Virus record (IMG/VR): IMGVR_UViG_2585427777_000018
Coordinates: 1-33,234 of that record
DNA from: a virus
Taxonomy: Duplodnaviria; Heunggongvirae; Uroviricota; Caudoviricetes
Direction: 5' to 3' (one strand)
DNA: 33,234 nucleotides
Each line of letters starts with the position of its first letter. Within the stretch, counting starts at the first letter, position 1. Shown in pieces: positions 24,001 through 27,000 of this stretch. A program made the position numbers.

Positions 24001-27000
24001 ACTCATCCCGGCTTTCCGAGAAAAAGAGGTCGCGCCCCTTGCTATCACGAAGCGAATACATCATTTGCGGCGGATCGTAACGTTTTCCCCCGACAAACGA
24101 ATAAACACCGGACCTGACACGATAGCCGGATGCTTTATCAATCTGCAATGCAGAAAGCGTACGGAGCAGTTTCCAGGTATCCGACATGCTCCGTAACCCC
24201 GGCTTACTGTCCATCATATCAGCCAGTTTCGCTGCCGGAATTTTCCCCTCCAGCATACCGGCAGTAGCTTCGCGACCGCTTTTAACAATGCTGATCCATT
24301 TCTGCATGTTACGGCTTGTTCTGGTGGGAATTTCACTGCGATACAACGCCATCATTGCCAGCGTGTCACTATCCACACCTTCTTTTTCCAGACGGGCATA
24401 ATCCGGCTTTCCTTCCGTGCTTCGCCAAACTGTTTCTGATACCCCAGATTTGTGGTGCCAGCAATATTGTCGTACTGCTGCTCACTGTTAAGGTTATCGA
24501 CCTTTTCCATGAAGTTATCTTCAGCCGGGCGGAGGATTTTTTGATAATCCTGCCACCCTTTCCAGGCCACTTCTTCCTGTGCTATTTGCGCTGCTGTTGG
24601 TTTTACTTTGGTATCACCACCGCCTTTTTTTCCGCCCATTATGGCTCCTCAGATAACAAAAAACCCTGCCGGGGCAGGGTCAGAATGTGAATTGCAATTG
24701 GTTTACACACGATAATGAATACAGTGGCAGTCAGACCGCTATCCTGAACACCATGAAGCCATCCTCATCATCCGGCATTCGCTCAAAGCCCAGACGTTTT
24801 CCCAGCCGGATAAATCCCCGCCTTGCCGTGTGGAATTCAGCCCAGCGTCCGCCAGCCAGACGGGTTAATGTCTTCACCTCCGGCAGATAACGCTCAACAC
24901 CGGCACTCCCCGTACACACACCCAGCAACACCAGAACATAAGGGATACCGTCGTCACTGAGCACAGAACGCAGCACCAGAAAACCATCCGGTGCCTCAAA
25001 GCAAAACGCCTGCTTTTTAAGGCAGGCGTCTTTAACTTCATTCATAAATTCAGGGTTGCGGGAATTTCTCACAACACGCTGCATATACCGGAGAATTTTG
25101 TCGTCCATTCTCTCACCAGAAACGAGTGCCATATCGGCTGAACCTCAGCAACCAGTTGACGGGAACTTTCGTCCCCGTCGCGGTTTTCCTACTGCTTACA
25201 CTGTAAGAACGCCGCAAACTCCGCCCCCCCACAAATTCAGCCGGAGCTCACACAGCGAACCGTGTAACATCCAGATGGTGAAGATTACCGTCATACAAAT
25301 TGTGACGGTGATGAGCGATTTTTGCGACATAGCGCTTGCCTCCTGAGTGGAGAGGCGCTAACCTTCTACTTGCTTAAGGTATGATGGTTAGGGCCTCGGG
25401 TTAAACAAAATGTTTGACTCGGGGCCTTTCCCCACATCAGGCCTTCAGGTTCACCTTCCAGCCATCAGCCGAAAGGCACCCGCGCATAATCTACGATTTT
25501 TGCCCTGCACGGGCAACAAAAAACCCGCCATCACAGCGGGTTATGACATGTTGTCGGGTATTACTCAGAATTTCAGGCCAATGCCTGCAAATAAACCATC
25601 AGTTTTCCAGTCGCCAGAGCCTGAGCTTTCATAAGTGACGTCCATAGTAACACTTTCATTGAAGTTAAATTGCGCGCCGACAGACCATGCAATAGACGTT
25701 TTTTTGGTGCTGTTACTTTCAGAAAAACTACCGGCACCATGATTAAGATTGTCGTTAATTTTCAAGTCAGTGGTGACTTTTGCAACCCCCATACCAGCCA
25801 TTGCATACACACTGAGGTATTCGTTAAACCGCCACGAAGGACCGGATAGTAGACTCCAGTAATTAGCCCTGATATCAGTTCTCGCTGAAGCTGCCGGGTT
25901 TTTTACCTCTCGTGATGGAGCGGAAGGCTTAACATCAATAAATGCCTGCGCATTAGTCATGGAGCGCGCCCATGTAAAAGAGGCTATAACACCCAGTTCA
26001 TCAGTTATCTCGTAACGATACCTGATGCTCATCCCCAGGGGGCTTTTGGCTGTGCCGTCATGCCCCCGGGCAATAGCATTTTCGTATTCACCTGATGAAT
26101 TAAAATGGTTTACGTTTACAACATTCCTGAACGTATCCCGGTTATAAACACCCGCGTCTCTAACAAAATCCTTCAGCCCGGGGACGCGGCGTGACGTAGA
26201 GGACGTAATACGGATCTTCGCCATACAATTCATCACCGGACAGGCGTACCGGTTGTAACGGATGAGCCATCTCGTCAATAAACAACGAGAGATTATCGAC
26301 CAGCGCAAGGGTGAACAGGTCAGACTGGTCAATACTCTCAAAACTCGTCGCATCCCCACCGAAAAAATGACGATCATGCGTCGGCGGCAGTACGTCGTTG
26401 ATCATGATTTTTTTGAATTCAGGGTGATCTGCCGTTGGCAGAATGGTGTCATCAGCAACAAAATCACCGCGGGCACCGGCAAGATGCACTATCGCACACT
26501 GGTCTTGCAGGTCGTTAAAGTACGTACCCAGCAGCGTTCTGGCAGAGGATGCCAGGTTGAACTTCGTACGCTGCTGGCTCATACGTCCGCCCGCATCCAC
26601 CAGGTGACGGCCCTGATTAATTTTCAGGGAAAAATCAGCATGGCTGAGGTCTTCACCACGGCCTTCAACGCGCTCATCCCCCATCGTCGGACGTTTAGAG
26701 AGTTTGTGCATGATGCTGAACGTCACTTCATCACCGGCCTGTTTGTTGAGGTCCGTGATTCGCACAACCGGTGCACCTGCACTGGTCTGCTTCGTACTTT
26801 TCTTGTCAGGCGAAACTGCTTTTGGTGCATCCTGCTGTTCAGTGAGAATATTCACCATCGAGCGGTTTCGGTTGGCAGCCGTGAAAAGCGCCACCTGATA
26901 CAGCTTATTCGCCTGGGCTGTTGTTACTGTGGTCATTACGTCAGTACTCCTTCAGTGGTTACTCATCTCGTAAAAATCGCCACCCACACCTTCAGCAGTG

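Follow-up and report, generated by a model that had tools for sequence, protein, structure and literature searches.

How does a 5'-truncated lom gene come to lie close to terminase sequence in a prophage from which the genes for portal, head completion and tail are gone? The DNA analysed here (the window; 33,234 nucleotides) is the complete contig JOST01000161.1 of assembly GCA_000713855.1, from E. coli 5-366-08_S4_C1. A preliminary description had read this locus in the frame of a lambda-type terL-to-lom layout, placing the lom homology about 80 bp from the terL stop codon, and had proposed a single deletion from portal to J that spared the terminase, the lysis genes, the morons and a giant gene. 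The plan relevant to this element is a different one. Unlike the lambda A-to-J layout, its late genes follow the 933W/Stx2a-type podovirus plan, with an N4-gp56 capsid and a P22-type portal, and the top matches in the phage collection were Stx2a-converting phages. With the 933W/Stx2a-type prophages (those of O104:H4 and of strain 23CRST047, and deposited Stx2a phages) the element shares the order Q, nanS-p, holin, lysozyme, Rz, moron, terS, terL, ..., lom, hok, ..., LPD38, each segment kept being 98.7-100% identical to these relatives at the nucleotide level.

Breakpoints were determined from the ends of blastn segments against the intact O104:H4 prophage (NZ_CP027394.1, 452-492 kb), which carries a complete short-tailed 933W/Stx2a-type late operon and is itself a non-Stx prophage. 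Its genes run in the order terS, terL (568 aa), portal, a 335-aa gene, N4-gp56 capsid (404 aa), four small genes and tail fibre, followed by cor, tail-tip genes, lom (245 aa), hok, five small genes and LPD38 (2783 aa). Four blastn blocks were obtained:

Window 18434-24410: O104:H4 prophage region 2443-8418, 99.3% identity
Window 24410-26188: O104:H4 prophage region 13719-15496, 99.9% identity
Window 26183-26962: O104:H4 prophage region 25223-26002, 98.7% identity
Window 26957-33234: O104:H4 prophage region 30357-36634, 99.8% identity

The four blocks are colinear with the reference (98.7-99.9% identity) and define three deletions of 5,300, 9,726 and 4,354 bp, approximately 19.4 kb in total. 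In synteny and identity the element is thus of the 933W/Stx2a type; unlike its intact relatives, it has lost three blocks and six of its genes are now stumps, with only TerL residues 1-219 and capsid residues 1-251 left of the virion module, and with portal, adaptor and tail genes absent. The second intact prophage, from strain 23CRST047 and inserted at the same ynfG site, yielded the same three breakpoints. The junctions are as follows:

26957..26962: J3, terL-capsid; 4,354-bp deletion; exact 6-bp microhomology GGTTAC, from a three-way alignment and from blastn ends against both references
26183..26188: J2, capsid-lom; deletion of about 9.7 kb; overlap GAnGCG, 2 bp exact, or 5/6 with one mismatch
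24410: J1, phrog_611-LPD38; 5,300-bp deletion; 1-bp overlap

The deletion at J3 removes terL codons 220-568, the portal gene and the 335-aa phrog_479 gene, and its position corresponds to the stop codon of this 335-aa gene, immediately upstream of the capsid gene. At J2, capsid codons ~252-404 are lost together with the head-completion, adaptor, tail-fibre, cor and tail-tip genes and lom codons 1-38, and at J1 the C-terminus of the phrog_611 gene, three more small genes and LPD38 codons 1 to ~940. Between the J3 and J2 deletions a capsid segment of 780 bp survives. The sequences on the terminase side and on the lom side match the O104:H4 prophage at 99.9-100%, but lie about 15 kb apart there. 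All three junctions interrupt an ORF. Given that a microhomology of at least 6 bp is expected at approximately 0.13% of random junctions, at least J3 looks microhomology-mediated. Alignment to intact relatives, the check that the preliminary description had suggested, thus supported the absence of portal, head-completion and tail genes from the window, while it contradicted the single deletion from portal to J: three junctions are present, and the capsid segment separates the terL and lom remnants.

The genes around J3 and J2 are the following:

27595..28410 (-): terS, small terminase subunit, intact, 271 aa; phrog_370 matched over its full length (1-284/284, E 1e-117)
26952..27614 (-): terL remnant, 220 aa; residues 1-219/568, then a foreign His codon and a stop codon
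26160..26936 (-): major capsid remnant, N4-gp56-type, 258-aa ORF; residues 1 to ~251/404, then seven out-of-frame lom codons and a stop codon
25565..26188 (-): lom remnant; codons 39-245 and the stop codon, without own start codon, signal peptide and first beta-strand

Of the terminase, which had been regarded as retained, the small subunit is intact, its DNA being 100% identical to that of the O104:H4 prophage, but the large subunit is not. The terL remnant matches the terminase large subunit families phrog_2 and phrog_26724 in their N-terminal part only, compared with 568 aa in the intact relative, and the protein ends in ...GGDFYEMSNH. The gene ending at 26160, previously taken for the 3' end of terL beside lom, is the N-terminal part of the major capsid gene (Pfam Phage_capsid_3, PF13252, positions 2-228/376, E 6e-52; phrog_334 major head protein, 7-232/381), whose intact 404-aa relative covers PF13252 from 2 to 375 of 376. 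The capsid remnant keeps its native ribosome binding site (AAGGAG) and its ATG at 26936, both unaffected by J3. There is no spacer of about 80 bp between terL and lom; the junction at 26183-26188 lies inside the last 26-29 nt of the capsid ORF. A capsid-Lom fusion protein was considered and is ruled out, as the capsid frame runs for seven codons into lom DNA in another frame and then stops (...VTPRPRAEGFC and stop).

The truncation of lom itself, and its lack of a signal peptide, were borne out. The minus-strand frame ending at 25565 matches Pfam Ail_Lom (PF06316; E 7e-29, profile positions 50-199/199) and phrog_108 Lom (E 2e-61), and its DNA homology to the intact 245-codon lom breaks off at 26188. 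Protein alignment with the intact Lom revealed that codons 1-38 of 245 are missing, comprising the signal peptide MKSIMKFFACAVLVMSCLTAQVNA and the first strand/mature segment ASGDSTVSLGFAHI, while residues 41-245 are identical; in this alignment no start codon was found at the homology boundary. The C-terminal 207 residues give a strong match to the profile of the family that includes lambda Lom and Ail, but with residues 1-38 gone the copy in the window has neither a Sec signal peptide nor a complete 8-strand barrel. In seven assemblies carrying this remnant, gene callers give only internal ORFs of 78 or 131 aa. An ORF of 270 aa (25565-26377, -), in which the C-terminal 207 residues are Lom and the upstream part is capsid DNA in an alternative frame, was predicted by no gene caller in these seven assemblies. 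Judged by these alignments, the lom remnant is a pseudogene fragment and no functional member of the Ail/Lom family, and its product would not be expected to get to the outer membrane.

The arrangement is very probably the outcome of routine stepwise decay, through three independent internal deletions, of a non-Stx 933W/Stx2a-type prophage in ynfG; no observation speaks against decay. The ancestor would have been a short-tailed prophage of this type integrated in ynfG, in which each deletion joined two non-homologous points via little or no microhomology (6, 2-6 and 1 bp). Such junctions fit illegitimate recombination of the slipped-misalignment type rather than site-specific or homologous exchange, and from general knowledge we infer that RecA-independent illegitimate recombination may have produced all three. 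What remains of the late region is a string of stumps (terL', capsid', 'lom, frameshifted hok, phrog_611', 'LPD38); to one side lie terS and the lysis genes, all intact, and to the other early-left-type genes. The main value of the comparison is a correction: the apparent terL-lom fusion is terL' - capsid' - 'lom, resulting from serial deletions, so that the element has no working terminase and no intact giant gene, besides its missing virion genes. It represents a new allele of a well-known object, the defective lambdoid prophage, and no new biological system, although, anchored to references and with one candidate intermediate, it makes a clean example of how prophages of the Stx-phage family decay step by step.

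We then evaluated how widespread the allele is. The same three-junction allele occurs in at least six other independent assemblies, and exact look-ups found the three junction-specific proteins on 8-13 contigs from ENA metagenome assemblies and several Logan SRA assemblies. Over window positions 24300-27100 (2,801 bp), the allele-bearing contigs are 100% identical wherever they overlap. Since all copies are identical, neutral and maintained evolution of the stumps are not distinguishable. None of J1, J2 and J3 was found in any of 5,426 complete E. coli genomes, approximately 400 of which hold the parental sequences, or in deposited phages, and neither JGI metagenome contigs nor GTDB species representatives contained the exact 44-mer across J3. 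A look-up of the DUF826 protein, aimed at the rest of a 37.8-kb metagenome scaffold with the early region and int, returned only intact relatives, this protein being very common. The E. coli clone bearing J1-J3 could be traced with these junctions as lineage markers.

The insertion in ynfG, the three deletions, the six stump ORFs and the frameshift in hok mark the element as a defective (cryptic) prophage. No portal or tail gene is left, TerL is without its nuclease half, the capsid protein without its C-terminal part (codons ~252-404), and the giant protein has lost its N-terminal third. To judge from this gene content, it would by itself be able neither to cut and package DNA nor to build heads or tails, in agreement with the earlier view that it makes no virions alone. 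Asadulghani et al. 2009 reported that EHEC prophages with severe morphogenesis defects are still packaged through inter-prophage complementation (PMC2669165). Like the Sp series of EHEC O157 Sakai described there, the present element is a chromosomal lambdoid prophage with morphogenesis genes affected by deletions or frameshifts and with lysis genes, morons and some packaging genes kept. Inducibility, packaging and transfer were measured for the Sakai prophages (PMC2669165); the present element, described from its sequence, is without essentially the whole virion module and the nuclease half of TerL. By analogy, helper-assisted packaging is conceivable in principle, but the helper would have to provide TerL plus every structural protein.

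This precedent of packaging and transfer by prophage-prophage complementation (PMC2669165) is one reason to consider that the element is under selection. Intact terS and a presumed packaging site might allow its packaging by a co-resident 933W/Stx-type phage; alternatively, the capsid (1-251) and TerL (1-219) fragments, expressed late, might act as dominant-negative proteins against superinfecting Stx-type phages. If true, the remnant would be packaged by a co-resident phage or would protect its host from superinfection by phages of the Stx type. The lysis genes and morons are intact along with terS, and the capsid stump, with its native ribosome binding site and start codon, would be made from the late transcript. 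Against selection, each of the junctions cuts an ORF, and the allele is both clonal and rare (8-10 contigs, none in the complete genomes, the JGI metagenomes or the GTDB representatives). Pfam and PHROG searches of the late region gave no genes of P4-like, PICI or cf-PICI satellites; rather than being organized as a satellite, the element follows a full phage colinearly at >98.7% identity, with gaps that cut through ORFs. We consider selection for packaging and selection for interference, taken together, improbable, and prefer stepwise decay.

With respect to the order in which this decay would have proceeded, one 7.6-kb contig (L021; Logan SRR35196834) is informative. Of the three junctions it has J3 only, and the capsid gene next to it is complete (404 aa); three small head genes, an SU10-type adaptor gene and a tail-fibre gene come after. 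Its match to the window starts at 29753 and stops at exactly 26183 (three SNPs in 3,571 bp); from there on the contig follows the 23CRST047 prophage at 99.6% identity. It has two of the three SNPs that separate the capsid fragment of the window from the 23CRST047 reference. This structure indicates that the deletions were sequential, with terL-capsid (J3) first and capsid-lom (J2) later, and L021 is a candidate intermediate. The contig apparently stems from a metagenomic short-read assembly and could be a chimeric path via the 780 bp shared with an intact phage, so that this order is indicated rather than proven.

The same contig bears on an alternative origin of the locus, in which two or more prophages, mosaic or with different deletions, recombined with each other instead of one prophage undergoing serial deletion. 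For the capsid piece, identity is 98.7% to the O104:H4 prophage vs 99.6% to that of 23CRST047, and for the lom piece 99.9% vs 94%; by nucleotide comparison such unequal identities to the two references show mosaic ancestry. The junctions themselves overlap by just 1-6 bp, so homologous exchange did not make J1-J3. Furthermore, L021 has a 23CRST047-like head module already joined to J3, as expected if the ancestor was mosaic and intact downstream. Recombination of deleted prophages is thus improbable as the origin of the junctions, and serial deletion in a mosaic ancestor is favoured.

A further concern is that a short-read assembler may have collapsed or mis-joined repeats common to several lambdoid prophages, and the window is indeed a short-read draft contig that ends inside nanS-p, as is typical of repeat-limited assembly. 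J1-J3, in contrast, link non-repeated sequences via at most 6 bp, and an identical 2.8-kb junction region was recovered from different samples, pipelines and repositories. Given the complete identity of the allele-bearing contigs over 24300-27100, an assembly artefact is very unlikely. A single deletion from the end of terL to inside lom, with portal to J lost and terminase and giant gene intact, is refuted. In its favour, no more than about 1.4 kb separates the truncated lom from terminase sequence, and virion genes are missing; but the 780-bp capsid segment intervenes, there are three junctions, terL ends at codon 219, and the giant gene is short of ~940 codons.

The remainder of the late region contains the following features:

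18878..24376 (-): giant LPD5/LPD1/MuF_C/LPD38 gene, 5'-truncated; ~1,843/2,783 codons left, native start lost
24352..24639 (-): chimeric 95-aa ORF across J1; residues 1-77 of the 218-aa phrog_611 protein and 18 out-of-frame codons of LPD38 DNA
24731..25132 (-): phrog_610 gene, 133 aa, intact
25190..25330 (-): hok/gef-type toxin gene with +1 frameshift; C7 run at 25224-25230 on the + strand
28980..31276 (mixed strands): late-region genes kept, comprising a His_Phos_1 moron (+) and Rz-type spanin, lysozyme and holin genes (-)

The giant gene, described earlier as retained, is present but not whole, the first ~940 of its 2783 codons being deleted as revealed by blastn against the O104:H4 prophage. 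At 24352-24376 (-), the TGA of the chimeric 95-aa ORF overlaps the ATG (ATGA) that opens a giant-gene remnant of 1825 codons, and several gene callers call exactly this 1825-aa product. An N-terminally truncated giant protein could in principle be translated by coupling at this ATGA. The C run in hok counts seven C (+ strand) compared with six in the O104:H4 prophage, and the resulting frameshift replaces the C-terminal AEFAAFLQCKQ by GGVCGVLTV. Because the other allele-bearing contigs have the same sequence, the frameshift is probably genuine rather than an error of homopolymer sequencing, and it fits continuing decay. An Rfam scan detected no Sok-type or other RNA near hok. As stated in the preliminary description, lysis genes and morons are kept; by blastn, the lysis genes and the His_Phos_1 moron display zero indels relative to the intact O104:H4 relative. 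The moron (28980-29594, +) has the spanin gene and terS as neighbours, both oppositely oriented to it, is fully conserved, and is labelled LPS core heptose(II)-phosphate phosphatase in relatives. In two draft O104:H4 assemblies (GCA_000235125.1 and GCA_000258615.1), terL, portal and capsid are called as several short ORFs, which probably reflects draft gaps or frameshifts and not real decay.

Beyond the right end of the window, the element could be followed for 3.7 kb on a contig (L003) that shares 17 kb with the window at 99.965% identity. This extension contains nanS-p, a 152-aa gene, a DnaD_N-like gene, Q, ninH, rusA, ybcO, ninE and ninB. The preliminary description had allowed for morphogenesis genes relocated past the window end; none are present in the 3.7 kb reached. 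On this contig no stx operon lies between Q and nanS-p. The corresponding interval (L003 1155-3000), which is the stx site of Stx phages, holds a 197-aa gene with a DnaD_N domain and, in opposite orientation, the 152-aa gene, for which no family match was obtained.

On the left, the prophage is inserted in ynfG just past ynfF, the flank consisting of ynfF and truncated ynfG. No integrase was seen in the window at the ynfG-side end of the 933W-type element. Two prophage ends lie about 10 kb apart in the window, at 1-3400 and at approximately 13680-13770. The first comprises a block of exonuclease, xis and int genes beside rspB, and the corresponding block in a related strain is a degraded Qin-type prophage region. 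At the prophage end by ynfG, 14075-15364 (+) contains two tandem ORFs with near-identical AntA-like N-termini (MTNQLIPVFDGT... and MTTQLIPVFEGT...); an antirepressor gene seems to have been partially duplicated here. Between these ORFs, at 14609-14694, lies the sole Rfam hit of the scan, a match to sRNA-Xcc1 with 73 bits.
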